Under the pieces are notes generated by a model that was given only the letters and a program-made list of their open reading frames with translations, did no database searches and was not told the DNA's origin. Made by a program: the position numbers and the translations under genes. A stretch of DNA of 64,000 nucleotides, taken from a virus. The DNA is taken from the UHGV virus genome UHGV-0170242; one strand, given 5' to 3'. Below, one piece after another: positions 9,920-47,736 of the stretch (position 1 is the first letter of the stretch; each line of letters starts with the position of its first letter).

Positions 9920-10398
9920 TTAAAGATAGCGGAACCCGTACATCATTTGAGAGCGGAGCAGTTCGCGATATCCAAAAAGGTAAAGGACGGTGCGATCTGA
10001 TGCCGTTAGATGTAGTAGCAGCGATGACCGAAGATGTTACATTTCTGGATATCTACTATTTCTTAGATACCGGACGTACTGACGTAATGCTCAAGTTGAT
10101 TAGTAATTCAGCGGTTAAACTGTTTGGTAGCATCGAGAACGCACTCCTCGAAGTATCTATTCATTATGAGGAAGGCGCAGAAAAATATGGCGAGCACAAC
10201 TGGGAGAAAGGAATACCAGCACATAGTTTTGTAGATAGCGCAATTCGTCATTATATCAAGCTTCGCCGAGGTGATAAAGATGAACGTCATGATCGAGCAT
10301 TCATATGGAATCTCCTCGGTCTATTGTGGACAATTGAACATCATTCAGAATTGAACGATCTTCCATATTGTACCAGAGATGCAGATACAATTAAGTAA
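9916..10398 (+). CDS. dATP/dGTP diphosphohydrolase-like (DUF5664-type) protein
   Basis: GAVRD..KGRCDLMP, GAEKYGEHNWEKG, DSAIRH, H...IWNLL motifs. Confidence 0.75.
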   Translation: MIKDSGTRTSFESGAVRDIQKGKGRCDLMPLDVVAAMTEDVTFLDIYYFLDTGRTDVMLKLISNSAVKLFGSIENALLEVSIHYEEGAEKYGEHNWEKGIPAHSFVDSAIRHYIKLRRGDKDERHDRAFIWNLLGLLWTIEHHSELNDLPYCTRDADTIK

Positions 10399-20024: not shown

Positions 20025-20990
20025 ATGGAGAAATATGTATTTTCAGGCTCTCTTAGTAATACAATGCATGATATGTTAGCAGCTAATCCCAAGTTTGAGC
20101 CGCTGGACATTCTAATATCGCAGTTAGATCGGAGTGCCATAAAACAGACTATCGAATGGAAGCGTCAGGGATTCTGTCGATGGCTATTCATAGATAGCGG
20201 TGCATTCAGTGTTCATACAGGTAGAGCAAAATGTACGGTTGATGAGTACATCGCATATCTCAACAGCATAGATGATGATATCGATGTGTTTGCACAGCTG
20301 GATACAATTCCCGGTCAGTTCGGCAAGCCGAAGACTCCTGAGGATTATGCAGAATCCGCTCGCAAGTCTTGGGAGAATTATCTGTACATGCGTGAGCGAG
20401 TCAAGAGCCCCCATAAGCTGATGCCTGTTTTCCACTTCGGTGAGTCATTCGACGCACTGAAGAACATGCTTGAATGGAAGGATGAGAAAGGCGAGCATCT
20501 CGATTATATTGGGCTAAGCCCTGCAAATGATGCTCCGGTATATCTCAAAAACATTTATCTGCGCAACTGTGCAAACATAATAGCGGCATCGTCTAATCCG
20601 CACGTGAAAACACATCTTTATGGATACACCTCGTTAGAAGGATTGAGCAAATTGCCTTGTTACAGTGCTGATAGTATAAGCCATAGGCTTATCAGTGGCT
20701 ATGCGAAGATTTTATCTCGCAATTTTGGTGTTATTTCGGTATCTAAACGTGCAAGAACAGCCTCGTCTAAATCAAATCTTAGCTTTATTGAAACGGCAGA
20801 CGAATACAATCTGGCTATATTGGAGCAAGAGCTTGCCGATTTGGGATTTACTCTTGAAGAAGTTCAGGAATCGTCCTCTGCACGTGTTGTAGTCAACATG
20901 CTGAATATTCAGTATTTAATAAACCATGATTACAAGTATGACGAAAACAAGCAGAAGAGACCGAAGAAGTTGTTTAATTTGCCTAAGTGA
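20025..20990 (+). CDS. TGT/DpdA-like guanine transglycosylase
   Basis: FIDSGAFS, QLDTIPG, PVFHFGE, THLYG, SADS TIM-barrel motifs of the TGT family. Confidence 0.75.
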   Translation: MEKYVFSGSLSNTMHDMLAANPKFEPLDILISQLDRSAIKQTIEWKRQGFCRWLFIDSGAFSVHTGRAKCTVDEYIAYLNSIDDDIDVFAQLDTIPGQFGKPKTPEDYAESARKSWENYLYMRERVKSPHKLMPVFHFGESFDALKNMLEWKDEKGEHLDYIGLSPANDAPVYLKNIYLRNCANIIAASSNPHVKTHLYGYTSLEGLSKLPCYSADSISHRLISGYAKILSRNFGVISVSKRARTASSKSNLSFIETADEYNLAILEQELADLGFTLEEVQESSSARVVVNMLNIQYLINHDYKYDENKQKRPKKLFNLPK

Positions 20991-31529: not shown

Positions 31530-33605
31530 ATGGCTCAAATAGTCATAAACGAGATTAGCGCGAATTATACTTATAATGTGGGTAGTAATTCGTTTGCAAC
31601 AGTGGCGCTGCCGATCACCGCTTGCTGGGGCCCAGGTTTCTCCGATCCAGGCCCTGAAAATAGTATAGATACAGCGCTTGAAGATGTTAAGTGGCTGGCA
31701 TTTCCGGCAACACAGACAGGTGTTGAGCGATTTGTCAGCACGTTCCGCGGGCCGACTGCTGGATATCGTATGTACAACGATTATTCATACGCACAAGCAA
31801 TGACGCTATTATCAGCTGGTTACGATGTATTAGTGTGTAGACTTTCCAATGGACTTCGTGCACACGCAGCCTTCAATGGTTCTGGCGAACCGGAGTCAAC
31901 CGTTTATGACGGATCGGTTGAGTACACAGAGAATGACGGTCAGACGACTGGCGTAAAACCTGCTACCGGGCCGATGGCCGCCTCTACTGGTGTAGTTACT
32001 CTGACTGCAAAGTATCCAGGAACATTCGGAAATAAGCTTCAATGTTGCCTTAAGAAGATGAATTATCGTACGGTTCTGAATGACGGCATCGCAATGACTA
32101 AGTACTACTGGAATCTTATCACGTACGTTGTAGACGTAAGTGGTATGAAGTCTGCAGTAGAAAATCTATCATTTGTGTTCGAAACTGCGAACGCAACTGA
32201 TAACATTTCACACTATTCTGAGATTGACTCTGCATTTGTGGACATCTCTGTTGAGGGTGATGTATACGATTCAGCTTCGCAGGTGATGTATGGAACTAAT
32301 CATGACGATATAGTTCCTAGTGTTCGTCTTGCAGGCGGTACCGACTACAAAGCATATACTGATGATAATGCGGCAGCCAGCAGCGCAATTGCTAATGCAT
32401 CATCTCGTTACGCTGCGGTTGGTTATACAGTATCCGAAAGCTCTCCCGATTACGTCGCACAGCTCAAGGCAGCGCTCACTCCTACTCAAAATGCAGGTAA
32501 GGAGTCCACTTACGCGTTTGACACTGCCACGCTCACACGCATCGCTAACATGCAGTGGTTGTATACAGCAGCTGTTGGATTCGGATCAGCAGGTACAACA
32601 AGCGGTATCAAGGGAGTATATGACTTACTTAAAGATAAGCTCACATACAACCCCAACAGAATAATTAGCCCTGGCTGGGATGATCAGAATTATTCTGAAT
32701 TCAACGGTTATCCTCGCAATGACCATGATGCTAAGATGCAAGATATTTCTCCTATGCACATCAAATTGATGGACGTTGCTTATCATAGCAGATGTGCAAC
32801 ATCGATTATCGACATTCCTCGAAGCTGCTTGCGTAAATTTGTTTACAATGATAGCGCTGACACTGCATCAGAGGGTTATGCACAGATGCTTGCTCGATAC
32901 ACTCCTAACACAGCTGCAACTGATGTAAACGGCTCGCTGTATCAGACACACTCTGCACTTTTCGCACCTTGGGGAAAATATCCATATGCTGGAATAAACA
33001 AACCGACAACGGCATCTCCGGCATTCCTTGCACTTATGATTCAGCGTGCGCAGATTCTGAATCAGCCGATGCAGTACGAATGGGCACTGCCTACTAATCG
33101 CAAGCATAATCTGCCTATCGGTAAGATGGATTATGTTGTAACTAAACACCTGCTTGATGAATGGCAGAAGCTTGAGGGCGTAGGTGTAAACGTAATAACC
33201 AACATTCCCGATCTAGGTACAAATATTTGGGGCAACTCCACGCTTTACGAAGTACCTCCGGCAGTTTATCAAGCACTTGCTAATCTGTCAACTAGATATT
33301 TGGTCAACGCAATTGAGAATGTAGCATACAGATGCGGTCTATCTATCACATTCTCCTACAACAACGGTCAGGCTTACAACAAGTTCTACGCTGGTGTAAC
33401 TCCGATTCTAGACACTATGAAGAACGTAGGTGCGATTGAAGACTATCGTGTCCAGATGTCAGCAGATATAAACGGATTGGATCAGGTAAATGCTAATACT
33501 GTGATAGGTAAGATATGGATCACAGTCAACGGTGTCATCAACGATATCTATATCGACCTTATCGCCCTCCCCAGTTCTGTCGACCTTAATACGTATCTCG
33601 GATAA
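31530..33605 (+). CDS. Contractile tail sheath protein
   Basis: MAQIVINEIS, LTAKYPGTFGN, LAGGTD, IWGNSTL, LSTRYLVNAI, C-terminal GKIWITV; AACCTTGTAT at 31451. Confidence 0.9.
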   Translation: MAQIVINEISANYTYNVGSNSFATVALPITACWGPGFSDPGPENSIDTALEDVKWLAFPATQTGVERFVSTFRGPTAGYRMYNDYSYAQAMTLLSAGYDVLVCRLSNGLRAHAAFNGSGEPESTVYDGSVEYTENDGQTTGVKPATGPMAASTGVVTLTAKYPGTFGNKLQCCLKKMNYRTVLNDGIAMTKYYWNLITYVVDVSGMKSAVENLSFVFETANATDNISHYSEIDSAFVDISVEGDVYDSASQVMYGTNHDDIVPSVRLAGGTDYKAYTDDNAAASSAIANASSRYAAVGYTVSESSPDYVAQLKAALTPTQNAGKESTYAFDTATLTRIANMQWLYTAAVGFGSAGTTSGIKGVYDLLKDKLTYNPNRIISPGWDDQNYSEFNGYPRNDHDAKMQDISPMHIKLMDVAYHSRCATSIIDIPRSCLRKFVYNDSADTASEGYAQMLARYTPNTAATDVNGSLYQTHSALFAPWGKYPYAGINKPTTASPAFLALMIQRAQILNQPMQYEWALPTNRKHNLPIGKMDYVVTKHLLDEWQKLEGVGVNVITNIPDLGTNIWGNSTLYEVPPAVYQALANLSTRYLVNAIENVAYRCGLSITFSYNNGQAYNKFYAGVTPILDTMKNVGAIEDYRVQMSADINGLDQVNANTVIGKIWITVNGVINDIYIDLIALPSSVDLNTYLG

Positions 33606-33710: not shown

Positions 33711-35981
33711 ATGATATGTACTTGTGTGCGCTGCGGCGCACAATTTGAAGCTAAACGAAAGACAGCAGTGTGTGCTAATTGTCATACTGCTGTTTGTGTT
33801 ATTTGCGGTAAAGAATTTCAACTGCAAACTCCATGGACTCAGAAAACATGTTCATCTAAGTGCCGGGCTGAATATGTGAAACAATCTGGAATTGCAAAAG
33901 AGCGAGCTAAAAAGGCGAGTGCTACAGTTAAGAAGAACGGCACCGTGCATGTGTTTACTAAGAAATGTGCATACTGCGGTAAAGAGTTTCAAACTACGTC
34001 CAGCCGGCAGATTTACTGCAATGATATTCATTATGGGCCGTGCCCTGTTTGCGGTAAACCGGTTGAGATAAAAGAGATGTATTTAGGGCCGCAGGCTTGT
34101 TCGGACGAGTGTAGGCAGGCGCGAATTGAATCAACCTGCATTGAAAGATACGGTTCACCTTCTGCTGTTAACTCCGATCAGGCGCGGGCTAAGGCTAAAC
34201 AGACCTGTTTAGATAAATATGGTGTGGAACATTATTCTCAATCTGCAGAATATCGAAAACGGTACGAAACTACAATGGTTGAGCGGTACGGAGTTAAGTA
34301 TCCGCTACAGAGCAGTGAAATGTTGAATCGAGTTAAACAAACTAATCTGGAGCGATATGGGACTGAGTTTCCTTTAGGTAGCGTTCAGGTTAAGCAGCAG
34401 ATTGCAGTAACGATGCAATCTAAGTACGGAGGGTTTGGATTAGGTTCTGATGTTTTGCGAGATAAAATAGTAGCTACCAATGTGCAGAAATACGGAGTTG
34501 CAGTTCCGTCTAAATCAGATACAGTTAAACAGAAAATGAAACGTACAATGCAGATGCGATACCACGGTGCTCCTATCAATGATCCTGATGTGCGAGCTAA
34601 ATCAGTTAGCACCTCTTTGGTCCGGTATGGAGTTAAGCATCCTTCTCAATCTGACGCAGTTAAGCACAAAGTAGTCAAGACGATGTTGCAGCGGTATGGA
34701 GTTGATAACGCTTTTAAGTCTGAAGAGATAAAGGACAAGATTAAGCAAACTAATCTTGATAAACTAGGTGTAGACAACCCAATGAAGTCTGAAGAAATTC
34801 GAAATAAGGCGCGGGCAACTAATGTAGAGCGATACGGAACTGAGTGGTACAATAGTTCGGTGTTATCTATCGAGCGACGAATGACTGACCCTACTAAACT
34901 TAATATCTATTTACAGTTTGTATCGGATCCAGTTAATTTTATTGTTACCAATTACATTGATTCACCTACACTCACAGAGCTTTCTCGAGATACTGGGGTG
35001 GATGTTGCAACGATAAGTGCGCATGTACTGGAATCAAACGCTCAGCAATACATCAGTTATCATGTATCTACAATGGAGCGAGATATCGTGTTATACATCA
35101 AAAGCATAGCTCCGGATATTAAGATTGTACAACACGATCGATCTATGATATATCCGAATGAATTAGATATTTATCTTCCTGACTATCATGTTGGAATTGA
35201 ATGCAATCCTACAGTAACGCATAATTCATCTCGGATGGATCCGTGGAGCGGAGCTCCTAAACACTATAGGTATCATCAGCAGAAATCTATTGATTGTAGC
35301 AACAATGGTGTATTCCTATTCCATGTATTCGGATATGAGTGGACATGGAAACGTGATATCATATTGTCGATGATAAAAAATCTTTTAGGCAAGTCAGATG
35401 CTCGCGTGTTTGCCAGAAATACTCAAGTTGTAGAGCTCACCGATTCGGAGTGTCGTGAATTCTTGAATGCTAATCATCGTCAAGGTGCCATGTTTGCTAG
35501 TATTCGCCTCGGGCTTAAAGACAAGCAGACTCATGAGCTTGTAAGCGTGATGACATTCAATAAGATTAGATCTACTATAGGCAAGAAAAGCTCAACTGTT
35601 GAATTCATGGAACTTTCTAGATTCTGTTCGAGATTAAATACCTGTGTAGTGGGTGGAGCTAGTAAGTTATTTAGTTATTATTTGAAGCATCACCTAATTC
35701 ACAACGTAGTATCATTTTCGGATGTAGCTCACACTCGCGGAAATCTGTATGCTCAACTTGGATTTGTTAGGTGTAATGAATCTGCTCCTAGTTACGTGTG
35801 GGTTGACTCAATTACTGATAAAGCACTAAATCGAGTTGAATGCCAGAAATCAAATCTCGTTAAACTATTAGATGAGCCAGATCTAGACCTCTCTCAGACA
35901 GAACGGCAGATGATGGAAAGTCATGGATACCTTCGAGTATATGATTCGGGAACAGTCCGTTGGGAATATCACTCAAACTAA
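33711..35981 (+). CDS. Hef-like free-standing endonuclease: Zn-ribbon repeats, (K/R)YG repeats, Vsr/DUF559-like nuclease, Mom-like GNAT domain
   Basis: Multiple CxxCG ribbons; many ERYG/KYG units; ELDIYLPDYHVGIECNP...H; ELSRFCS...VVGGASKL...SFSD...G.LY..LGF; YDSG end. Confidence 0.75.
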   Translation: MICTCVRCGAQFEAKRKTAVCANCHTAVCVICGKEFQLQTPWTQKTCSSKCRAEYVKQSGIAKERAKKASATVKKNGTVHVFTKKCAYCGKEFQTTSSRQIYCNDIHYGPCPVCGKPVEIKEMYLGPQACSDECRQARIESTCIERYGSPSAVNSDQARAKAKQTCLDKYGVEHYSQSAEYRKRYETTMVERYGVKYPLQSSEMLNRVKQTNLERYGTEFPLGSVQVKQQIAVTMQSKYGGFGLGSDVLRDKIVATNVQKYGVAVPSKSDTVKQKMKRTMQMRYHGAPINDPDVRAKSVSTSLVRYGVKHPSQSDAVKHKVVKTMLQRYGVDNAFKSEEIKDKIKQTNLDKLGVDNPMKSEEIRNKARATNVERYGTEWYNSSVLSIERRMTDPTKLNIYLQFVSDPVNFIVTNYIDSPTLTELSRDTGVDVATISAHVLESNAQQYISYHVSTMERDIVLYIKSIAPDIKIVQHDRSMIYPNELDIYLPDYHVGIECNPTVTHNSSRMDPWSGAPKHYRYHQQKSIDCSNNGVFLFHVFGYEWTWKRDIILSMIKNLLGKSDARVFARNTQVVELTDSECREFLNANHRQGAMFASIRLGLKDKQTHELVSVMTFNKIRSTIGKKSSTVEFMELSRFCSRLNTCVVGGASKLFSYYLKHHLIHNVVSFSDVAHTRGNLYAQLGFVRCNESAPSYVWVDSITDKALNRVECQKSNLVKLLDEPDLDLSQTERQMMESHGYLRVYDSGTVRWEYHSN

Positions 35982-36031
35982 ACCTTTTATCAATGTGAAC
36001 AAAAATTCGTGTTATAAGGAGTTTCTAAACA

Positions 36032-38281
36032 ATGTCTGATATCACAATTAAGTATAACGCTAAGCCGATTGGTCAGCTTTCAGAGAGTGGAACAGCTAAG
36101 TTATTGACTGCACGGAAGAAGTGTGCAAGTAACATTGAGGTTGAATATGTAAAGCCGAAGAATACACGTGTAAACCCGGACTGGGCGCAAAATGACGCTA
36201 CTATGAGTGACTACATAAAGAATAGGCCGGGCGGGTATGACGATGTGCAGACAAAAGAATCCGAGATTATGTCTCTTAATTGCCCTGCGGATAAAAATGT
36301 CGCACAGGCCTACGCAGATTCTTCGTTTTTCCCTCCGTCGGCAGGAAATGTTATATCAGTGACAGTAGACGGTAGCACAAAAGAATATACACTAGCAGAA
36401 ACAACTATTGAGTACGACTCATTTTTGTGGTTCGGTACTCAAAATCCGTCGAGCATCACTGATATCCATGCTTTTTTTGCCCGTGATAAGTGGTTCGGGG
36501 ATTTTGGGATTGACGAGAGTGGCATATATATTCGCGTGAGCTACGGGTCACTTTCCGAAATTGCTGGAAAAACTGTAGGTTTAAAGCAGCGAGGTTTGTC
36601 GGTAACCCCAGTAAAAATAAACAGACGGTACATTGATATGGATGAACCGGCAATTAAAATCACTAAAAAGGGCGCATTGTATTCTCCGTCAATAACTGAC
36701 GATAGCAACTCTCTTGGGGCGTACGCCGTAAGTTTTAGTCACGGTAACGGTGGCGCCACTGAGGCGTACGCATTTACTGCTGGGATGAACACAGTAGCGT
36801 CTGGAAATACCTCAACCGCGTTTGGATTCGGCACAAAAGCGTCTGGGAGGTACTCCACTGCTTTCGGTATCAACGCAGAAGCGTCTGGTGGACATGCGAC
36901 AACTTTCGGTGATCATACGAAAGCGTCTGGAAACACCTCAACCGCTTTCGGTACTGACACAGTGGCGTCTGGTAGTTACTCAACTGCTTTCGGTAGCAGC
37001 GCAAAAGCGTCTGGTTCGGTGTCAACCGCGTTTGGATTCGGCACAGAAGCTTCTGGGAGTAACTCAACTGCTTTTGGTGATCATACGAAAGCGTCTAATT
37101 CTCGTTCGGTCGCTTTCGGATATTATACTTCGGCTAACCAAAAAGACCAATTTGTCTGCGGGAGATTAAACGACGAAACAATCGGTAAAGACCACCTTTT
37201 CGTTGTTGGTTCTGGATCTACCACAGACAAAAAGATAAACAGCTTTGCTGTGACAATCAATGGCGAAATCGTTATGCCTGACCCGAATGCAACGTCCACA
37301 ACGTACATGAAGGCAAGGTTTAACTCTGACGGCACTATTACGTTAATTCCGCTTTCGGATGAAACAAGATCGTATACTACTGAATGCACAGCAAACCGTG
37401 TTACGGCGATAACTGCTGAATCAACGGACACGCAGTACCCAACAGCAAAAGCCGTATATGATGCTTTGCAGGTCATCGACATTCCAAGCGGCACTGACAT
37501 ATCCCTCGGAGTGACAGGAGCGACTGTCGGACAGACTGTGAATGTTAAAACCGTTGATGATAACGGAAAACCTATTGCATGGGAAGCCGTGGATATGGCG
37601 GCAGGTGCTGATGGCGTAACACCAACAATCGGAGAGAACGGGAATTGGTATCTGGGTGAAACGGATACAGGCAAGCCGTCTCGCGGTGCAAAAGGCGACA
37701 AAGGAGACCCGTTCACTTATTCCGACTTTACTGCCGAACAGCTTGCCGCTCTCAAAGGCGATAAAGGTGATAAAGGTGATAAAGGAGACACGGGAGCAAC
37801 GGGCGAAAGTGGAGCGGACGGTGCAGACGGTAAAAGTGCGTATCAAATTGCCCTTGACAATGGTTTTGTTGGCTCTCAGTCGGAATGGCTCGCGAGTCTC
37901 AAAGGTGACAAAGGAGACAAGGGTGAAAAAGGCGATACTGGAGAACAAGGCATTCAAGGCATCCAAGGTGAAAAAGGCGATACAGGCGTACCCGGCAAGG
38001 ACGGCAAAGATGGTAAAAACGGTATAACGCCGACTATTGGCGCAAATGGCAACTGGTACATTGGCAGCACCGATACAGGCAAGCCGTCTCGTGGCGATAA
38101 AGGTGAACAAGGCCCGCAGGGATTGAAGGGCGATAAAGGTGAACAAGGCCCGCAGGGTGAAAGAGGCGCTGACGGTAAAACGCCGATTAAGGGTACGGAT
38201 TACTGGACAGAAGCTGATAAGGCAGAAATCGTACAGAGTGTTATTGAAGCGTTGCCGGACGGAACGGAGGTGTTATATTGA
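36032..38281 (+). CDS. Tail fibre/adhesin with YadA-head-like and collagen-like repeats
   Basis: 14-aa ASGxxSTAFGxxTx repeats, G-X-Y runs (GDKGDKG), duplicated TPTIGxNGNWYxGxTDTGKPSRG; AACCTTTTAT at 35981. Confidence 0.8.
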   Translation: MSDITIKYNAKPIGQLSESGTAKLLTARKKCASNIEVEYVKPKNTRVNPDWAQNDATMSDYIKNRPGGYDDVQTKESEIMSLNCPADKNVAQAYADSSFFPPSAGNVISVTVDGSTKEYTLAETTIEYDSFLWFGTQNPSSITDIHAFFARDKWFGDFGIDESGIYIRVSYGSLSEIAGKTVGLKQRGLSVTPVKINRRYIDMDEPAIKITKKGALYSPSITDDSNSLGAYAVSFSHGNGGATEAYAFTAGMNTVASGNTSTAFGFGTKASGRYSTAFGINAEASGGHATTFGDHTKASGNTSTAFGTDTVASGSYSTAFGSSAKASGSVSTAFGFGTEASGSNSTAFGDHTKASNSRSVAFGYYTSANQKDQFVCGRLNDETIGKDHLFVVGSGSTTDKKINSFAVTINGEIVMPDPNATSTTYMKARFNSDGTITLIPLSDETRSYTTECTANRVTAITAESTDTQYPTAKAVYDALQVIDIPSGTDISLGVTGATVGQTVNVKTVDDNGKPIAWEAVDMAAGADGVTPTIGENGNWYLGETDTGKPSRGAKGDKGDPFTYSDFTAEQLAALKGDKGDKGDKGDTGATGESGADGADGKSAYQIALDNGFVGSQSEWLASLKGDKGDKGEKGDTGEQGIQGIQGEKGDTGVPGKDGKDGKNGITPTIGANGNWYIGSTDTGKPSRGDKGEQGPQGLKGDKGEQGPQGERGADGKTPIKGTDYWTEADKAEIVQSVIEALPDGTEVLY

Positions 38282-40200
38282 TGAAAAAGCTCTACGAAGA
38301 AGCATCTGTTCAAGACATTGCCGCTGCCATCCGTGAAAAGACCGGTGGCACGGAGACATACAAGATAGCGCAAATGGGGACTGCCATACGAGGCATCCAT
38401 GGTGCAGAGACAATCCAGTGGCATCAGTGCCCCGAGGCTGTTAGGAACTATCTGACAAACGTTACCTATGATTCCAGCGATTACAGTACATCTCAGATTG
38501 CAAGCTACGCTCCGGCTAATGCAGTAGTTTCCAACTACAAACCGATTGGACGAGACGCCGGTGGAGAGACACACTTCAACGAAGTGCCGAACATCGAAAC
38601 ACCGTTTGCTGGCGGCGGTAAAGCTGGGACGCTTAAACCTCTGGATTTTTTACGCTGGATTCGGACGCGAAATAACTCCGCAGAGGCGTGGAACGTTCGT
38701 GACCTTGGTGGATGGGCTTGTGACGGCGGCACGGTGAAATATGGTCTGCTAATCAGAGGCGGAAAATTATCTGCGGCAGACCGCGCGGTGCTTGTCGGCG
38801 AAATGGGCATCCAACACGACCTTGACTTGCGAGGGCGTGAGGGTGGCGGTTCGGGAGACGAGCCTGAAATGACAGAATCTCCGCTTGGAAACGACGTATG
38901 GTACACACGCACACAGCAATATGCGTGGTATGCTCTGACACCAGTAGCGACATGGCAGGCTTACTTCCGCTGCGTAATTGACGCAGTGACACATCGGGAG
39001 CCGGTGTATTTTCACTGTACAGCAGGGGGCAGACCGTACCGGCACACTTGCCTGTGTGCTGGAAGGCATACTGGGCATGAGCCAATCGGACATCGACAAG
39101 GACTATGAGCTGACGACATTTTATTCCGGCTCTGGCTCAGACGCTAATGCACGACGGCGCAATGAGCCGGACTGGAAAGGTCTCATTAATGCCATTAATG
39201 CTGTGTCGGGGAAACATTCCGCGACAAATGCGTTCACTTCGCGGTAGGAACGTGTGGCATGACGATGGCTGATATCAATGCTTTCCGCGCGGCTATGATT
39301 GACGGTACGCCCGAAACCTTACACTGGTATCAAACAATCACCAAAAATCTCACAGGCTGCACAATAAGCAATAACGCATCGCAAGTAGATTATGGCGAGG
39401 CGTACACCGCGACCATCGCGGCGGAAAGCGGGAAGACTATCACGTCGGTAGTTGTCAAAATGGGAGGCGTGGACATTACAGCCACGGCTTATACAGCTGG
39501 TAGCGGTGCAATCAACATTGCCAAGGTGACGGGAGCGGTCACGATTACGGCAGTCGCAATTATGCCGTCTGTGACTTACACCATCACGCTGAATCTTACC
39601 AACTGCGCATCGTCAAACACGGCAACCAGCATCGCGGAAAATGCGTCCTACACCACGACTCTCTCACCGACGGGAACTTTCAAGAAGCTCGGTGAAATTA
39701 CTGTCACGATGGGCGGCGTGGATATCTCCGCTTCGGCGGTGTCTGGCAGCACAATCACAATTGCCAAGGTAACGGGCGACATCGTGATTACCTGCGCGGC
39801 GGTCATCACGAACATCATCGACACCATCGGCATCTCTGCAAACACGCGCTTGAGCACTTCAAGCGGCGAGAACCGGACGCAGAGCGGATATGCGGCAATC
39901 GGGGCAAACAAAGACGCGGCAAGCCTAATTCATCTCATGAATGGCGATACGCTCCGAATCAAAGGCGTAAGTTTGCCCGCGTCGAATGACAGTTACAGTG
40001 CAGTTGCATTGTACAACGCAGACGGAACGTTCAGCAGCTCGACCTATCTTCACAACGGGCTAACTTGGAATTACATCGAATTTAATAATACTGTTGATGG
40101 CGTTACAATAACCAGTAGAGACGAATTTTATTTCCGCGTATCTTTGATTTGCACAGACGCATCGGCGGTCATCGCTACCATCAACGAGGAAATCGCATGA
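38281..40200 (+). pseudogene. Protein-tyrosine-phosphatase-family domain + Ig-like repeats, broken by two compensating homopolymer frameshifts
   Basis: NVRDLGGW, DLDLRG; HCTAG-ADRTG P-loop restored by removing one G at 39025-39029; adding one G at 39208-39211 rejoins ORF 39259-40200. Confidence 0.75.
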
Positions 40201-40254
40201 CGGAGCAAGACAACCCAAAGTTGGATTCAAGTACATAAAAAGGAGTTTAAACAA

Positions 40255-40575
40255 ATGAAACGAACAATAATGATTTCACAACCGATGAAAGACCTCTCTA
40301 GTGAGAAAATCGTCGAGGCTAGAGAAAAGGCTATTCGCACATTAGAAACGTTTGGTTATGATGTGATTGATAATTTTTTCACTAACTACACTGACGATGG
40401 TTACATTGCAGAGGATACTAAACATAAACCTGTAGCATACTTAGCTAAATCAATAGAAGTAATGTCTAAGTGTGACGCTGTATATTTTGTAAAAGGATGG
40501 GAAACAGCTAGGGGCTGCAAAATCGAACACGAAATTGCGAAGGCTTATGGTTTAGCAATTATTTATGAGGATTGA
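40255..40575 (+). CDS. DUF4406/nucleoside deoxyribosyltransferase-like protein
   Basis: IMISQPM, CDAVYFVKGWETARGCKIEHEIA. Confidence 0.75.
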   Translation: MKRTIMISQPMKDLSSEKIVEAREKAIRTLETFGYDVIDNFFTNYTDDGYIAEDTKHKPVAYLAKSIEVMSKCDAVYFVKGWETARGCKIEHEIAKAYGLAIIYED

Positions 40576-40580
40576 TATTT

Positions 40581-41450
40581 ATGACAAAATTATCAGGTAT
40601 TGACGTATCGCATTATCAAGGCGACATTAATTGGAAGGCTGTAAAAGAATATGGAATAGATTTCGCCTTCATTAAGTGTTTACAAGGTAAGAGCAAAGTC
40701 GATGAGTGTTTTCATACTAACATGCAAAACGCGATAGCAAATGATATTCCTGTTGGTGTGTATGTCTATAGTAAAGCAAAAACAATAGACGACGCTGTAG
40801 CTGAGGCAAAAAGGGTAATTAAAGAATGTTCACAGTATAAGTTGACTTACCCTGTTGTGTTTGACTTTGAGTCTAAACACTTCGAAGATATGAGCCTCGC
40901 AATGCGTGGAAAAATCATTGATGCTTTTTGTCAAACCATTTTATCTGATGGTAACTACATACCAATGCTGTACAGCTCTCGATATTGGCTTATGCATATG
41001 ATTCCAGCCGAAGTAGTTAAAAAATATGACATTTGGTTGGCAGAATATACTACAGGTGAACCAAAGTATACCGGTGAGTATAAAGTATGGCAATACGGCC
41101 TTGGAAAAGTCACCGGTATTATCGGAGATGTAGATATGAACATTGGGTACTACGATTACGGGAAGGAGAAACCAATCATTATGGAACCTATTGTATTTAA
41201 AAGGGAAGAGACGCTTACGTTTGACGAGAACGTTAAGAAACTCCAAAGGTTCTTGAACGACATGCATTATCGTGACATGAACGGAAAGAAATTGATAGAA
41301 GATGGCAAGTACGGCAGCAAAACTGAATATGCGCTTAATATGTTTGTGAATAACCATGCTAACTTCGCCAATATCGTTCCGTCAAAAGTTGATACTAAAC
41401 TATCAATCAATGGAGTTAATCTAATTGGAGTCTTATATACGACAAAGTAA
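40581..41450 (+). CDS. GH25 endolysin with C-terminal peptidoglycan-binding domain
   Basis: GIDVSHYQG, FAFIK, GVYVY, DFE, WLAEY, WQY, DVDMN; VKKLQRFLN...DGKYGSKT. Confidence 0.9.
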   Translation: MTKLSGIDVSHYQGDINWKAVKEYGIDFAFIKCLQGKSKVDECFHTNMQNAIANDIPVGVYVYSKAKTIDDAVAEAKRVIKECSQYKLTYPVVFDFESKHFEDMSLAMRGKIIDAFCQTILSDGNYIPMLYSSRYWLMHMIPAEVVKKYDIWLAEYTTGEPKYTGEYKVWQYGLGKVTGIIGDVDMNIGYYDYGKEKPIIMEPIVFKREETLTFDENVKKLQRFLNDMHYRDMNGKKLIEDGKYGSKTEYALNMFVNNHANFANIVPSKVDTKLSINGVNLIGVLYTTK

Positions 41451-41599
41451 CATAGCTGACCGGCGCTTTTTAGTTCCGTAGCTGACATGCAGAAACTGAC
41501 TGATAATGAACAGGTCCAGTTAGTCGTTATTCAATATTGAACCTTGTATAAGGATAGAATGAATGACACCAATTTGAACCATGATGTGAGGTAGATGAT

Positions 41600-42004
41600 A
41601 TGAAGAGAGTAGTTGCATCGTCCCGAATTTCGCCCAATCTGTTGACGTTTTTGTCTAGCAACTTGGAGGTAAACGGACCGTTGTATAGGGGCGCTCGAAT
41701 GCCCAAATTTAACCCAGCTCAGATAAATGAGTCTGAATTTAGTGATAACTTGCGAATGAAACGCTTCAAGTGCAACATCCTGGGCAACAGTTTAGAAATA
41801 GATTGGACGACACAAGAGCCGTTTACTTCAAGCGACGCAAAAGAATTAGTAGCCGAAATAGAGCGGGCTGTGGAGTACTTATATCAAAGGTGGCTCGATG
41901 TGTCTATGTCTATCAGCAGCATGCCTAAGGTCATTGTCAACGTTCAAGATAGATATGATAGTTCCAGCTATCGCGAATGTTTTGGCAACTGTAATGCCAT
42001 ATAA
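41600..42004 (+). CDS. Hypothetical protein (MKRVVASS start)
   Basis: GAGGT RBS; AACCTTGTAT at 41540. Confidence 0.65.
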   Translation: MKRVVASSRISPNLLTFLSSNLEVNGPLYRGARMPKFNPAQINESEFSDNLRMKRFKCNILGNSLEIDWTTQEPFTSSDAKELVAEIERAVEYLYQRWLDVSMSISSMPKVIVNVQDRYDSSSYRECFGNCNAI

Positions 42005-42081
42005 CACACCACAAGGTTAATACAACTACAGTTGGTTACTCGTTATACATAATTAACACTATTAGAAGGAGAATACAACTA

Positions 42082-42636
42082 ATGAAAATTTACATTAGTT
42101 CAGCAGAAACCGGATTAACTAGCAAACAGCGCATATCGATTGCGAAAAAGTCGACTGACCCGAATGAGTTAAGCCAACTCGCTCATGATAATTCATCGCT
42201 GGTCCGGATGGAAGTACTTCGAAATAAATATACCCCAAAGAACATAGTTGACCAGCTTGCACGTGATCTGGTCAATGATAAGAATCCGAAAGTCCGCTGG
42301 AACGTCGCTTATATTACATACGACCCTGATCTCCTTGCACAGTTAGCTGATGACCCAGATTGGACTATCCGATGGGCAGTTGCTTTTAAAGCAGATGACC
42401 CTGACATAGTTGCAAAATTAGCAAATGACGAGGATTGGCAAGTTCGTCGCGCAGTTGCTAGGAAAACCAAGGACCAGGACATTCTTGCACAATTAGCAGA
42501 TGATGAGGATGCATTGGTCCGCTTAGTGGTTGCTCGAAGAATAGATGATCCTGATATAATTGCAGAATTGGCTAATGACGAAAATGAACAGGTCCGCAAC
42601 ATGGCGGCACGGCGAGCAACCACTATCAACCGATGA
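42082..42636 (+). CDS. HEAT/LRV-like repeat protein
   Basis: ~23-aa repeats LAQLADDxDWxVRxAVA. Confidence 0.8.
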   Translation: MKIYISSAETGLTSKQRISIAKKSTDPNELSQLAHDNSSLVRMEVLRNKYTPKNIVDQLARDLVNDKNPKVRWNVAYITYDPDLLAQLADDPDWTIRWAVAFKADDPDIVAKLANDEDWQVRRAVARKTKDQDILAQLADDEDALVRLVVARRIDDPDIIAELANDENEQVRNMAARRATTINR

Positions 42637-42684
42637 ACAGCTATAGCAGTTTGATCAATGAAGCAGCCTTAATCGAACTGCGTG

Positions 42685-43281
42685 TTAATCAAACACGTAT
42701 ACATGCTGTCCACAATCATACACAGGTAACCACCCATTCGAGAGCATGAATTCTGTAGATAGCATACGTTGACGCCTAGAAGCATCTGACATCCGATGAT
42801 CTGGAGTGATCCACCATCGGGTAGGTTGGATGCTTCTTTTATATTTCATTCCAATTGATTCATAATCAAGACAGTTCTCAAACGACAGGTTGACGTAAGC
42901 TACAACATTAGAGACGCCGAAGTCAACAGCTGCGGATGAAAGAATATCATATCCGTCAACTACATCGTATTTCGGCAACATCCACATTCGAGACAGCTCA
43001 ACATAATATGCAACATTGCGCGATTTCTTAAATGTCATCATACAGTATATCTGGGAATTATCAGCAAGTCCTAAACATAGCACATTTCCTCGAGGCGCGC
43101 CGAACGGGTGATACAATTCGAGCCACTTATCGGCAACACGCTTATCAACACGAATCACCGATAAAGAATGACCATCAATTTTATTCACTCGAGGCTCTTG
43201 ATAAAATATCAGAGCCGTTCTTTTAGATTCAAATGTCTTTCGACGCTTAGCTTGTACTTCAGACCGAAAGGCAGGATTCAT
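42685..43281 (-). CDS. Stand-alone Mom-like GNAT-domain protein (paralogue of the Hef-like C-termini)
   Basis: YCMMTF, VELSRMW, VVAYVN, GWLPVYDCGQ; GAGGTG RBS. Confidence 0.65.
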   Translation of the reverse strand: MNPAFRSEVQAKRRKTFESKRTALIFYQEPRVNKIDGHSLSVIRVDKRVADKWLELYHPFGAPRGNVLCLGLADNSQIYCMMTFKKSRNVAYYVELSRMWMLPKYDVVDGYDILSSAAVDFGVSNVVAYVNLSFENCLDYESIGMKYKRSIQPTRWWITPDHRMSDASRRQRMLSTEFMLSNGWLPVYDCGQHVYVFD

Positions 43282-43357
43282 TGTATCACCTCGTAGATAA
43301 ATATGTTATACATGTATATAAGATTGAATCGCATCAATTTCGTAAATAAATATATCC

Positions 43358-43392
43358 GCGAGTAGCTAATACATATGAGCTACTCGCCTTTT
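43358..43392. terminator. Hairpin, possible intrinsic terminator
   Basis: GCGAGTAGCT-AATACATATG-AGCTACTCGC followed by CTTTT. Confidence 0.5.
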
Positions 43393-43411
43393 ATACTGTA
43401 TGAACATCATT

Positions 43412-44791
43412 TCAATCAAAGACAAATACGCGTTGCCCGCAGTCGTAGACAGGGAGCCATCCCGCATCTAACATGTGTTGTTCATCGGCATTGTCGGAGT
43501 AGTTAGTTCCAAACAATTGATCATAACCGTGAACTCGAAGGAGGTTTGCAGTTATTTTCTTTTTGTCTTTAGACCAAACTAACTGTGGAGGAGTTACACG
43601 AGCTAGTTTCATCCCCAGCTGTTCATGTTCCCACCCTGTGTATTTAGACCGATCACAATATGCGATAATTCGAGAAAGCCCATAGTCCGCAGATGCGAAG
43701 TGAGAAAGTCGATCAAATCCACCAGTAATTTCAAATCCACGCTTAGTACACATTCGCATCATCTGCACGTTGTAACTGTGATCATACTTTGGTTTTCCAA
43801 AAGTCATCACTTGATAAACTTGCTCGTCTTTAACAAGGCCGAAGCTAACAAGCTGACCACGACATGTCCGGTGAATATCATTCTCATCTAAGAACTGATT
43901 TGTAACTTCGGGAGTAAGTCGATAAATCGACATATCTTCACTACTCAAAACAATTTTCGGTGCAATCAAGTCAATTACCTTATCCCAATCATCCCAATCC
44001 CAAACATGAATACAGCGATAGCCATTGTCTTCGGCAAGCTGCGTCTTGTCACGGTGGTAGTTAGGATACAAAGCGGTCATCCCTGAGTGATGAATAGATG
44101 CATGTGTGTATGACGGATTGATTTCTACTACAGTTTGAATCGTTGGTAGACATATATCAAAGTATTTGCCTCGAATGAATAATTCAAATTCCGTGGTGAG
44201 CCCACGAGCATTCAATAGTTCTGCAAATCGTTGATTGATTTTAGATACGTGCCCTTCCCAGTTGTGTACGTGTGGAAGTTCAGTAGCATATTTGACTCCA
44301 TATCTTTCCATTATTGTTCGATGCTGCTTTTCATAACACTCAGGACGATTGAATGGTAATATATCTCCATAGCGTTCCGCATTTGTTTTCATGCGTTTGG
44401 CAACTAGTTCAGCTGATTTAGCTGCATTATCTACTCCATATTTATCAACTAATGTCCGTTTAGATTTAATTTGCACGTCCGCGCTCATCATTGCGTAAGG
44501 TACTCCTAAGTTATTCATCATAGTTTCACTTGCTTTTTTACGAGCTTCGGGATTGTTGCCCGGAGCTTTGCATCCATATTTAGCTAAACTTGTTGCTTGA
44601 GTTCGTTTGACTCGGCATTCGTATGAACACGCAACAGGACCTGTTTTCAACAACGACGTAAGTTTAGCTTTTGGCACCTCGGATACTTTACCGCATATCG
44701 GGCAAGTAGTTGTATGCACTCTATCACAGTACAGCTGTCGACTAGTATGCGGTTCGAACGGAAGCCCGCAATATTTACATGATCTGGTCAT
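43412..44791 (-). CDS. Hef-like endonuclease (Zn ribbons, KYG repeats, Vsr-like nuclease, Mom-like GNAT)
   Basis: CKYCG/CPICG, KYG repeats, FDICLP...VEINPSYTH, YRCIHVWDWD, IIAYCD, GWLPVYDCGQ; AGGAGG RBS. Confidence 0.75.
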   Translation of the reverse strand: MTRSCKYCGLPFEPHTSRQLYCDRVHTTTCPICGKVSEVPKAKLTSLLKTGPVACSYECRVKRTQATSLAKYGCKAPGNNPEARKKASETMMNNLGVPYAMMSADVQIKSKRTLVDKYGVDNAAKSAELVAKRMKTNAERYGDILPFNRPECYEKQHRTIMERYGVKYATELPHVHNWEGHVSKINQRFAELLNARGLTTEFELFIRGKYFDICLPTIQTVVEINPSYTHASIHHSGMTALYPNYHRDKTQLAEDNGYRCIHVWDWDDWDKVIDLIAPKIVLSSEDMSIYRLTPEVTNQFLDENDIHRTCRGQLVSFGLVKDEQVYQVMTFGKPKYDHSYNVQMMRMCTKRGFEITGGFDRLSHFASADYGLSRIIAYCDRSKYTGWEHEQLGMKLARVTPPQLVWSKDKKKITANLLRVHGYDQLFGTNYSDNADEQHMLDAGWLPVYDCGQRVFVFD

Positions 44792-44822
44792 ATTATCCTC
44801 CTATATGATTAGTTCCATTTTA

Positions 44823-44851
44823 ATTATATGATATTATTGACGAAAAGTCAA
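44823..44851 (-). promoter_or_regulatory. sigmaA-type promoter for the minus-strand nuclease gene
   Basis: Reverse strand TTGACT-17 nt-TATAAT; -35 lies in palindrome TATTGAC-GAAAA-GTCAATA. Confidence 0.7.
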
Positions 44852-44906
44852 TAGAAAAATCTTAAATATTTATGGTGAACCAAAATAATTTATAGGAGGA
44901 TAAAAT

Positions 44907-45851
44907 ATGTTCACACCACTTTATATGGGAACGAATTGATAGGTTCTTTCGTACAGTGATGTGCGTCAATATCTGCTAGAATTGCTGAAACACCTCAAAG
45001 CTTGCACTGCTACAAAGTGATCTTGAAATACAGATGGGCTTGAATGCTACGAAAGTAAAAAGAAACGTGCAAGATAGCTGCAAGGTCAAATCCTAAACAG
45101 CTCGCCCAGTAAACAGGCAATCAGCAGCCGAGCCTCGAACAGAGGAAGGTTCAACGACCATCCCGCAGGACGTGAAATTCGTCAATAGGAGTAGGGCGCA
45201 AGTTAATGGCGCGGGTGAGATCCCCTTAATCCGAAGTAAGCAGCATCTGATTCACAGATGAAGATATGGTCTGCTCTTACACGAAAGTGTAAGCTGATGT
45301 ACAGGATGAGTGTTACGAGCTCATTGAACAGCCGGCATATGCTGGGCATAGACAACTATGTACCTTTGACCACAAACAACTTCGAAGTTAGGATATACAA
45401 CATGGACGGAAGCTCTCCAACAGAGTTCTCCGATCTGCTAACGCTCTCAACTGACGAAGTTGGTGAAGTAGCCGAAGAACAGGACGCAATCACTGTGCAC
45501 TATGGTAACGGTTTGATCAAGTTCCCTTCAAAAGTTACCTTTAGTGAAGTTGACTGGACGCTTAATTGCTATTGTGAGCCTAATGTACTTCAAGCTCTTC
45601 GTGAATGGCGACGCCAGGTGTATGACCCCGATACAGAGAAAATGGGTTTACCGAGTCAATACATGAGACAGGTGTATTTCATTAAATATGATGGCCAGGG
45701 CAATGTTCGAGATGTCATAAGATGTCCTGGTACCTGGATTGGAGCACTCAAGAACGGGGCTATGAATCAGACAGGCGGCGAGTTGGTCAAGGTATCGGTT
45801 CCCTTTGTGATTTCAAGGGCAATTTATATGAAGCCCGAAGATCTCAGGTAA
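44907..45851 (+). CDS. Tail tube protein (T4 gp19-like); exons 44907-44936 and 45336-45851 (181 aa spliced)
   Basis: AGGAGG RBS, MFTPLYMGTN|HMLGIDNY...NNFEVRI, LREWRRQVYDP..MGLPSQY, KYDGQG. Confidence 0.85.
44937..45335 (+). mobile_element. Group I intron in the tail tube gene (ORF-less, 399 nt)
   Basis: Exon ends in U followed by in-frame TGA; P GAATTGCTGAAA, Q AATCAGCAG, R TTCAACGACCA, S AAGATATGGTCT (GACCA/TGGTC P7); terminal G at 45335 restores frame. Confidence 0.88.
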
Positions 45852-45918
45852 ACTAAAGCACCTATCCAGTCAACCTTACATATAATCAAATCGTTATTGA
45901 GTGTGTAAGGAGACGGAT

Positions 45919-47736
45919 ATGGGGAAATACATCTGCAAAATCTGCGGAAAGGAATTCGACAGGGTCGGGAATGCGGTTTACTGTCAAGGACCGCATTTTC
46001 GGCCTTGTCCTGTGTGTGGCAAGCCTGTTGAATTTCATCGATTGAGCGAATCGGTTAAATGTTGTTCAAAAGAGTGTCGTGATTACTTAGCCAACCAATC
46101 AAAACAACATATTGAAGTATGTAAGGAATGTGGTAAGGAGTTTGTTGCTAATCAAGCATCTAACGTCTACTGTCCTGGTCCGCATATAGCTAAATGCGTA
46201 GTGTGCGGAAAGGACTTCACATATACTTGTTCACCTAAGGAGAAGCCGCATACGTGTTCAAGAGCTTGTCAGGAAGTGCTTAGGTCTCAAACTGCAATGA
46301 GTCGATACGGTGTAGCTAACGTATCTCAACTTGAGTCAGTTAAGCAAAAAATCAGCCATGCTACCAGATCAGAGCCTGTTAGGCAGAAGCGTGTTGCGAC
46401 CTCGTTGAGGCGATGGGGTGTAACTAACCCTGCTAAGAATGCAGATATTCGGAGACGGATGTCCGAGGTTATGAAATCTGACGGCTACTTGCGTAAGCGG
46501 GCACAAACATGTATTGCAAAGTACGGATTTGAATCACCTATGTCAAATCCTGACGTAATCGCAAAGCGGCGGGCTACTAACATAGAGCGTTATGGGACCT
46601 TTGGTCATATTCAAACACGCGATCAGCTTATGAAAGTTATGGTAGACGGATCTAAAGTTGACGAATTTATCGCGTTTAAGAATGATCCACAGGGATATAT
46701 TGCAGCACACTACACTGTGAAGCCTAATATCTCTCAGCTGGAATCTGATTTAGGGGTTACAGATACTCCAATTTATAATGTACTCATTGAACATGATTGT
46801 AGCGATTGCATTGCTCGCTACTCAAGTTCGATGGAAGCTGAAGTAATACAATATCTGCAGCGAGTTGTACCGGGCGTTGAAATCATACGAAATGATCGAA
46901 CCCTCATCAAACCGCAGGAGATTGATATCTATTTACCTCAGTATAAAATAGGAATTGAATGCAACCCAACAGCTACGCACAATTCGTCATTATCTGATCC
47001 TTGGGGGAGTAACCCCAAATCATACAGATATCATAAGGATAAGACTGATGCTGCCTCGACTGCAGGTATATTCTTGTTTCATATATTTGGATACGAGTGG
47101 ATTCATCGACGTCGCGTAATTGAGTCCATGCTGTCAAACTTGTTGGGAGCTACACCGTTGCGAATTGGCGCAAGACAAACAGCAGTAGTTGAGCTATCTG
47201 ACGCTGAGTGTAGACGTTTTCTAGATCAAAATCATCGTCAAGGTGCGTTATCAGCTGCAGTTAGATTAGGACTTAAATTCAATGATGACATAGTTGCTGT
47301 CATGACATTTGGTCGGCTGCGCAATTCTATAGGGGCAACCAAACAGTTCGTAGATTGCTGGGAATTGTCTAGATTCTGCAACAAATTGAACACAGTTGTA
47401 ATCGGCGGTGCAAGTAAGCTACTCAATTACTTCATTGCTACGCACGATCCAGAATCTGTTGTGTCTTTTTCAGATAGGGCTCATACACGTGGTGAACTTT
47501 ATCAGGTGTTAGGATTCACTAAAGTTTCTAGTACAGACCCTAATTATGTGTGGGTAGAAAAGAATGATTTAGCGTATTACAATCGTGTCAGATGTCAGAA
47601 ACAGTTTTTGAAACAGCTTCTCCACGATAACACAATTGACTTAACGCATACAGAACGAGAGATAATGGAGTCTCATGGGTTTGTTCGAGTTTATGATTCA
47701 GGTGTCATTAGGTGGGAGCTTCGCCTGAAGACATGA
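45919..47736 (+). CDS. Hef-like endonuclease (Zn ribbons, RYG repeats, Vsr-like nuclease, Mom-like GNAT)
   Basis: Clear paralogue of 33711-35981: EIDIYLPQYKIGIECNPTATHNSS, WELSRFC, GGASKLL, YDSG. Confidence 0.78.
   Translation: MGKYICKICGKEFDRVGNAVYCQGPHFRPCPVCGKPVEFHRLSESVKCCSKECRDYLANQSKQHIEVCKECGKEFVANQASNVYCPGPHIAKCVVCGKDFTYTCSPKEKPHTCSRACQEVLRSQTAMSRYGVANVSQLESVKQKISHATRSEPVRQKRVATSLRRWGVTNPAKNADIRRRMSEVMKSDGYLRKRAQTCIAKYGFESPMSNPDVIAKRRATNIERYGTFGHIQTRDQLMKVMVDGSKVDEFIAFKNDPQGYIAAHYTVKPNISQLESDLGVTDTPIYNVLIEHDCSDCIARYSSSMEAEVIQYLQRVVPGVEIIRNDRTLIKPQEIDIYLPQYKIGIECNPTATHNSSLSDPWGSNPKSYRYHKDKTDAASTAGIFLFHIFGYEWIHRRRVIESMLSNLLGATPLRIGARQTAVVELSDAECRRFLDQNHRQGALSAAVRLGLKFNDDIVAVMTFGRLRNSIGATKQFVDCWELSRFCNKLNTVVIGGASKLLNYFIATHDPESVVSFSDRAHTRGELYQVLGFTKVSSTDPNYVWVEKNDLAYYNRVRCQKQFLKQLLHDNTIDLTHTEREIMESHGFVRVYDSGVIRWELRLKT

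Follow-up and report, generated by a model that had tools for sequence, protein, structure and literature searches.

What do proteins that join a DNA-cutting domain to a relative of the phage Mu DNA-modification enzyme Mom do beside the tail genes of a phage, and why does one of their relatives there lack the nuclease? The question is raised by a 64,000-nucleotide stretch of UHGV virus genome UHGV-0170242 (hereafter the window), a portion of a large tailed phage with helicase, primase, family A polymerase, clamp loader, recombinase, terminase, portal, sheath and tube genes. Three fusion proteins and one stand-alone ('solo') protein in the window share a Mom-like GNAT domain; a first-pass annotation had read them as a selfish restriction–modification-like (cut-and-protect) module with the solo protein as immunity factor, or as repeat-programmed DNA modifiers. 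The reading that we favour, with moderate confidence, is that the fusions are mobile Hef-type homing endonucleases with a Mom-derived C-terminal domain, accompanied by a domesticated solo gene.

Nuclease–Mom fusions and a solo relative

All four open reading frames (ORFs) lie where they had been placed. Fusion A1 (33711–35981, + strand, 756 amino acids (aa)) comprises Zn ribbons, ten YG repeats, a helix-turn-helix (HTH)-like linker, a nuclease domain (35061–35393) and a Mom-fold GNAT domain (about 35406–35972), and stands directly 3′ of the tail sheath gene (31530–33605, +), its conserved flank. Fusion A2 (45919–47736, +; 605 aa with ATG 45919 as start codon, against GTG 45901 in the ORF finder output) is of the A1 subtype, with its nuclease at 46822–47151 and GNAT domain at about 47164–47721, and stands directly 3′ of the tail tube gene (44907–45851, +). 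Fusion B (43412–44791, −, 459 aa) has Zn ribbons, five YG repeats, a nuclease (43937–44266) and a GNAT domain (43418–43948) with a degenerate pocket. The solo Mom-fold GNAT (42685–43281, −, 198 aa) has no nuclease and belongs to a conserved family of such proteins whose gene keeps a fixed place beside the tube gene.

The Zn ribbons and (K/R)YG repeats vary in number as described, with 5, 2 and 5 CxxC pairs and 10, 5 and 4 YG-type repeats (Pfam DUF7487) in A1, B and A2, and the HTH-like linker precedes the nuclease in A1 and A2. No support turned up for the YG repeats, at 4–10 copies here, as a TALE-like programme; base-specifying positions were not specifically sought. All three fusions carry D[IF].LP and E.NP..TH nuclease motifs (ECNPTVTH, EINPSYTH and ECNPTATH) and VYD[SC]G in the C-terminal domain. 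The other C-terminal blocks that had been listed are mostly present, but B has QMMRMC and G..H..LG instead of ELSR and G..Y..LG. The solo protein, described as that domain alone, is homologous to it but lacks the SFSD/AYCD and G..Y..LG blocks, having AYVN (without the Asp) and DY..IG, and a vestigial YG repeat is found in 102 of 120 solo relatives.

By their C-terminal domains the fusions form two subtypes, A (A1 and A2, 54% identical) and B (24–25% identical to A). The solo protein aligns with B at 30% identity and 91.7 bits, against 24.3 bits for the best of 100 shuffled solo sequences; identities across subtypes are 22–25%, and the match of solo to the A type alone is weak (28.5–30 bits). 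All four proteins fall under PHROG 3339 and 559, annotated as homing/HNH endonuclease, PHROG 3339 matching the three fusions at E values of 1e-116, 1e-52 and 1e-100. Profile and six-frame searches found no fifth family member in the window, to which this member count applies. NCBIfam gave nothing at threshold for the window proteins, which do not reach Pfam Vsr or the Pfam Mom threshold (passed by three close homologues), and PDB sequence searches returned zinc-finger or chance matches only, without recovering Mom.

The Vsr/EDxHD-type assignment of the nuclease held up in profile comparison. A profile built from 21 of the domains matched I-Bth0305I (PDB 3R3P), the prototype of the EDxHD family, in which Hef-type enzymes are included (PMC3239194), at E 2e-5, the only match below E 0.4. 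In the printed alignment E456, D486, N499 and H504 of A1 fall on I-Bth0305I E170, D196, N208 and H213, while the position of D222 is a conserved His (H522) and P..T replaces the G209/W212 region (residue roles from PMC3239194). D486 and H504 are invariant in 21/21 domains and E497 is present in at least 90%; the first catalytic Glu, at the E170 position, is absent in the B type, which has Asn or another residue. I-Bth0305I is intron-encoded, with NUMOD/HTH and no Mom domain, whereas the window fusions are free-standing and have one. Because the motif E.[ND][PG]..[TW]H occurs in 116/120 A-type and 120/120 B-type homologues (the best 120 of 1013 and the best 120 of 684 matches), NP..TH is the family norm, and its reading as a dead or decayed nuclease was ruled out. 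Structure searches were dominated by GNAT matches, and in the ESM Atlas the nuclease part yielded only leads below 0.9; the identity of the nuclease is taken from the profile alignment. Of 50,697 phage records, 408 match the nuclease plus C-terminal region, at up to 12 places each and often annotated as Hef-like; few selfish genes of large phages are commoner than this fusion.

Turnover around the sheath and tube genes

We compared the window with 31 solo-bearing loci, several of them duplicates (numbered with L; L009 and L010 were left out, the matches there being distant fusions), and with four distinct near-complete genomes (G001 and G004–G006). The tube gene is visible at 24 of the 31 loci, the remaining seven being too short. 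Nearest to the window among the records examined is G001 (the same record as L001), a virus contig of 118 kb that is classed as complete.

The selfish, mobile behaviour that had been suspected is apparent in these comparisons: three slots around the sheath and tube genes hold fusion alleles that swap, multiply and decay. In sheath, solo and tube L001 matches the window at 97–98% identity. Even so, a different B-type gene (36% identity) occupies the slot that separates its tube and solo genes, another two B-type genes lie 3′ of its tube gene and only the first 103 codons of its A2 remain; L013 has the same set as the window. Across the loci the post-tube slot is occupied by an A-type fusion, a B-type fusion, a nuclease with a methyltransferase-like C terminus, or nothing. 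This last kind of fusion, found at L008/L018 and L027/L028, joins Zn ribbons, YG repeats and a Vsr-like nuclease to an N4/N6 methyltransferase-like domain (L008, 2059–3876, −; L027, 1–1406, −; Pfam N6_N4_Mtase, E 0.018; PDB N4C methyltransferase 8S9N, E 0.0011), and L008 also has a fusion with a decayed GNAT domain. Between the window and its relatives the fusions have dN/dS values of 0.14–0.36, from few changes. Such turnover is the birth-and-death pattern of free-standing homing endonucleases (PMC2988022).

The closest known counterparts are Hef of phage U5 and Hef-like proteins (PHROG 3339 and 559) of Campylobacter, Dickeya LIMEstone, Tenacibaculum and Pseudomonas jumbo phages. The Hef-like proteins, which the comparison covered, share the nuclease and C-terminal region at 30–40% identity over about 300 aa. 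Like the window fusions, Hef-like genes are multicopy and free-standing beside virion genes, and LIMEstone F-LimVIII adjoins the tail tube gene. Unlike them (E.NG..WH), the window fusions have E.NP..TH, long YG-repeat arrays and a fixed nuclease-less derivative.

The tube gene itself is interrupted. Its true start is at 44907, the ORF call at 45258 beginning within a predicted ORF-less group I intron (44937–45335, +, 399 nucleotides; Rfam RF00028, 50.5 bits, E 7e-10) that separates exon 1 (44907–44936) from exon 2 (45336–45851). The intron would follow tube codon 10, is preceded by T and ends in G, as expected of group I, and its removal would restore the frame; its free folding was no better than that of shuffled sequences (z −0.11), and the claim rests on the Rfam match. 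It is absent from the tube gene of L001. The 5′ end of the tube gene is interrupted in 7/24 loci, at more than one position, and Rfam confirms introns in L008 (two), L030 and, weakly, L027, but not in L020. Insertions cluster, at several positions, within the first 11 tube codons, a hot spot for introns; the usual U/G pair is not cleanly seen at the apparent splice junctions of L020, L027 and L030. A group I intron that has no ORF, in a conserved gene with free-standing nucleases at its flanks, is the arrangement described for collaborative homing (PMC3984707, PMC2988022), and the intron and nucleases here fit that scheme, the target site in the window being a predicted one.

We propose that the three fusions spread as free-standing homing endonucleases, each predicted to cut a co-infecting relative's DNA within the adjacent conserved virion gene. 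The Zn ribbons, YG repeats and HTH-like linker would bind DNA, the EDxHD-type domain would cut it, and recombination repair would copy the fusion gene across. The carrier would most likely protect itself by loss of the target, for example through the ORF-less intron in the 5′ end of the tube gene. The Mom domain of A1 and A2 may, in addition, mark the target, whereas that of fusion B would probably serve as a DNA-binding module only, having lost three pocket residues.

State of the Mom pocket

The C-terminal domain might have turned out not to be a GNAT at all; the models predict a GNAT core with a Mom-type insertion. AlphaFold models of the solo protein (pLDDT 94.7) and of A1 residues 385–756 (pLDDT 92.9) both gave Mu Mom (8BV8; Pfam PF25680) as the top Foldseek match, at E 7.9e-7 and 1.3e-5, respectively. 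VIA-align superposed the two models on Mom with Z 12.3, root mean square deviation 3.4 and 158 aligned residues, and Z 12.5, 2.7 and 154; Mom ties with ordinary GNATs in Z, yet aligns over 154–158 residues against about 125–135 for them, and the additional 20–30 residues take in the Mom-type insertion. Probabilities from hhalign were 97, 90 and 85%, the 90% being for B, whose fold was assigned by hhalign rather than from a model of its own. In the ESM Atlas the solo protein falls in its own cluster (0.98, 231 members), with Mom clusters at 0.91.

Mu Mom is a dimer that transfers glycine from Gly-tRNA, the product assayed being 6-NcmdA; it requires R111, S124, D149 and R151, and H58, Y59 and Y159 are important (PMC13219725). 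Because the donor is Gly-tRNA, the acyl-CoA pocket that had been expected was the wrong thing to look for. We counted residues at these positions in 98 stand-alone Moms (97 of 150 matches that were long enough, plus Mu), 122 A-type, 121 B-type and 121 solo-family sequences. Among the stand-alone Moms H58, Y59 and R111 are invariant, D149 is present in 97/98 and Y159 in 95/98, position 124 is S or T in all, and R151 is present in just 46.

The A-type domains keep much of this set (H 122/122, R 122/122, Y 122/122, D 120/122). In A1 and A2 the equivalents of H58, R111, D149 and Y159 are retained, Y59 is replaced by R and R151 by A (A or S across the A type). The S124 equivalent, which neither automatic alignment placed, was set by hand from the helix register on the Ser of GGAS (S651 in A1; 119/122). 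Most B-type homologues come near the A-type pattern (H 106, R 121, S 101, D 116 and Y 113 of 121), whereas window B has D305, I306, R346, D360, D380, S382 and H389 at H58, Y59, R111, S124, D149, R151 and Y159. It thus retains only R111 and D149, with H58 changed to D, Y159 to H and GGAS to GGFD, and does not have the Mom active-site set.

Nor does the solo protein, which at the same seven positions has H58, P59, R98, D112, N131, S133 and Y140. Its family conserves this alternative (H 121, R 120 and Y 121 of 121; P at Y59, D or Q in the S124 register, S at R151), with N at the D149 position in 118/121 and with invariant residues of its own (E135, W156, W157, D166, R169 and R170) and an invariant basic insertion. 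These counts suggest that the Mom domain of A1 and A2 may be active and that of window B is probably inactive, and that the solo protein is, by its residues, not a Mu-type momylase but has a strongly conserved alternative pocket.

If the A-type pocket is active, each fusion might be a single-chain restriction–modification module, its Mom domain adding an aminoacyl or acyl group to adenine at its own target and its nuclease cutting unmodified host or competitor DNA, an explanation that we hold to be possible though less probable than homing. It was proposed for jumbo-phage Mom–restriction endonuclease fusions (Iyer 2021, PMC7824862), which match those of the window in architecture and in having several copies per genome. 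It agrees with the retention of H, R, D, Y and the GGAS Ser in the A type, and the R151 that the A type lacks is also missing from over half of the stand-alone Moms. Against it, every fusion has R, L or I where 98/98 Moms have Y59; window B pairs an intact nuclease motif with a broken pocket, and the L008 fusion likewise has a decayed GNAT; and allele swapping at fixed intergenic slots suits homing better than restriction. For A1 and A2 the two explanations are compatible, and cut-and-protect is plausible for that subtype. Self-marking by the A1/A2 Mom domain stands, on sequence grounds, at about even odds, a figure raised by the methyltransferase-like domain that substitutes for Mom in matching architecture and the same slot in L008.

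The fusion and the cut-and-protect idea are already in print (PMC7824862), and the new part is the solo family. The accessible text of Iyer 2021 does not treat the fusions as homing elements or mention a nuclease-less derivative, both of which belong to our reading of the window. Likewise, in the accessible parts of the open-licence PMC and bioRxiv literature, including PMC7261163 and PMC3296691, we found no test of a fused Mom domain and no description of a fixed nuclease-less family.

The solo gene and its surroundings

The solo family has 133 homologues down to 55% identity, from a search restricted to 108–347 aa and hence to forms that are not fused; 111 of the 120 listed are 195–230 aa long, many columns are invariant, and the typical length is about 215 aa, the window copy (198 aa) being shortened at its N terminus. 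The gene is divergent from the tube gene in 24/24 loci that show the tube, 16 of them without a fusion in between. Of seven pairs compared, six (one of these saturated) gave a defined dN/dS, of 0.08–0.33, which indicates purifying selection. In two GNAT-domain trees, one with Mom as outgroup, the solos group in a single clade (100/100), which joins the B-type fusions (100/100) as sister to window B (100/99).

Some loci hold forms that look like intermediates: the longer protein of L034 lacks a nuclease yet has Zn ribbons and YG repeats, and in L030 and L031 the solo is continuous with the upstream fusion. At L001 (9950–10010), L030, L031 and L034 pre-tube fusions abut or overlap the solo gene, or read into it in frame; for the L001 solo gene no start codon is evident, and its frame differs from that of the upstream fusion. 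In the window a perfect hairpin (43340–43375, −) lies between fusion B and solo, with no strong T run after it, and is absent from the terminator list. On the other side of the solo gene, at 42082–42636, lies a HEAT/LRV-repeat protein gene that differs in copy number and length between close relatives, with an extra copy after A2 in L013.

The first-pass proposal that the solo protein is a cognate immunity factor is not supported, because the gene stays constant while nucleases vary in number and type and because it lacks the D149 and R151 equivalents. The covariation of modifier and nuclease expected of restriction–modification with a separate immunity gene is not seen: G004–G006 have the solo gene with a single A-type fusion and no B type, and G001 has it with five or more fusions. 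A complex prediction of B (aa 176–459) with the solo protein scored 0.00 and was used neither way. From its fixed position, B-type branching and rebuilt pocket, the solo gene is probably a domesticated nuclease-less derivative with a job of its own rather than a matched antidote.

An upstream motif, ACCTTDYAT, bears on when it would be expressed. It occurs upstream of 18/31 solos against 1.8% of background windows, and the window has 11 copies where 3.8 would be expected, most of them shortly 5′ of genes such as sheath, the pattern having been derived from these same sequences; one copy precedes fusion A2 (45873–45881, +). It is absent in 5/5 loci where a fusion abuts the solo gene, and only a variant form precedes the window solo. 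We infer that this candidate phage promoter may be a late one. Fusion B is preceded by a candidate sigma70-like promoter (44823–44851, −; 11/12 consensus matches, the best in a 15-kb region), with similar sites before three other pre-tube fusions. Taken on sequence, the solo product is most likely a late-expressed, DNA-acting protein whose chemistry or binding differs from Mu momylation and which is no antidote to one nuclease.

A bolder version, which we regard as speculative, makes the solo protein a homing-endonuclease domain turned core phage enzyme, a Mom-fold transferase (pocket H, R, N, E and Y) that would install a new, non-Mu base modification on late-replicated phage DNA. The A-type fusions would then be homing enzymes that cut and mark in a single chain, with a modifier that a methyltransferase can replace. 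Were the solo protein catalytic, it would point to a novel DNA modification that depends on tRNA or an acyl group, and a selfish nuclease gene would clearly have become a housekeeping one. The locus sets three pocket states side by side (near-intact, degenerate and nuclease-free rebuilt), together with an intron-marked candidate target.

Unlikely, in our view, is that the solo protein acts as a broad antidote, a low-specificity modifier of phage DNA or a dominant-negative subunit for Hef-type Mom domains, so that incoming fusions are tolerated. It has no targeting arrays, like Mu Mom, whose dimeric state would suit a dominant-negative role, and it sits directly behind B-type fusions. However, the equivalents of D149, R151, Y59 and probably S124 are lost in it, G004–G006 offer no B-type partner, and a broad antidote would also bar homing into the lineage, in which allele turnover is fast. 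Genome-wide protection could come from elsewhere: the window has a queuine tRNA-ribosyltransferase-like gene (20025–20990; PHROG 887, E 4e-37), whose product we take to be a candidate DpdA for deazaguanine DNA modification, and this suggests, by analogy with phage DpdA enzymes, that such protection would be by deazaguanine rather than momylation. That the solo gene is a functionless, decayed leftover of a B-type gene is very improbable: B-type branching, the vestigial YG repeat, the short N terminus in the window and the missing start in L001 would agree with it, but the conservation of the family, on which we rejected a pseudogene, largely refutes it, as do dN/dS values well below 1, the fixed position and the enrichment of the upstream motif.

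Several observations count against homing with domestication. A flanking Hef-type nuclease is present at 5/5 interrupted and 6/11 uninterrupted distinct loci, which is not significant (p 0.11), and A-type fusions lie 3′ of intron-less tube genes in L032 and L033. The approximately unbiased (AU) test does not reject monophyly of the B type (p 0.065), so that nesting of the solos inside B is not decisive. The solo gene and at least one fusion occur together in 4/4 near-complete genomes, as a broad antidote would also have it, and fusions may depend on the solo gene. The nuclease–methyltransferase-like fusion in the post-tube slot of L008/L027 makes it more likely that the C-terminal domain does act as a modifier. 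Finally, S124 could be placed only by hand, the automatic alignment giving a posterior of 0.27.

Elsewhere in the window, the gene for the family A DNA polymerase is split into two parts (8372–9919 and 12154–13176), between which lie a dATP/dGTP diphosphohydrolase-domain gene (9916–10398), a group I intron match (10516–10841; Rfam, 63.7 bits) and a GIY-YIG/NUMOD3 endonuclease (11331–12176). The region at 36244–40240, with a YadA-head/collagen fibre gene, a stretch of 53% GC and a cysteine-phosphatase-like ORF (38278–39108), is absent from the close relatives L001 and L013.

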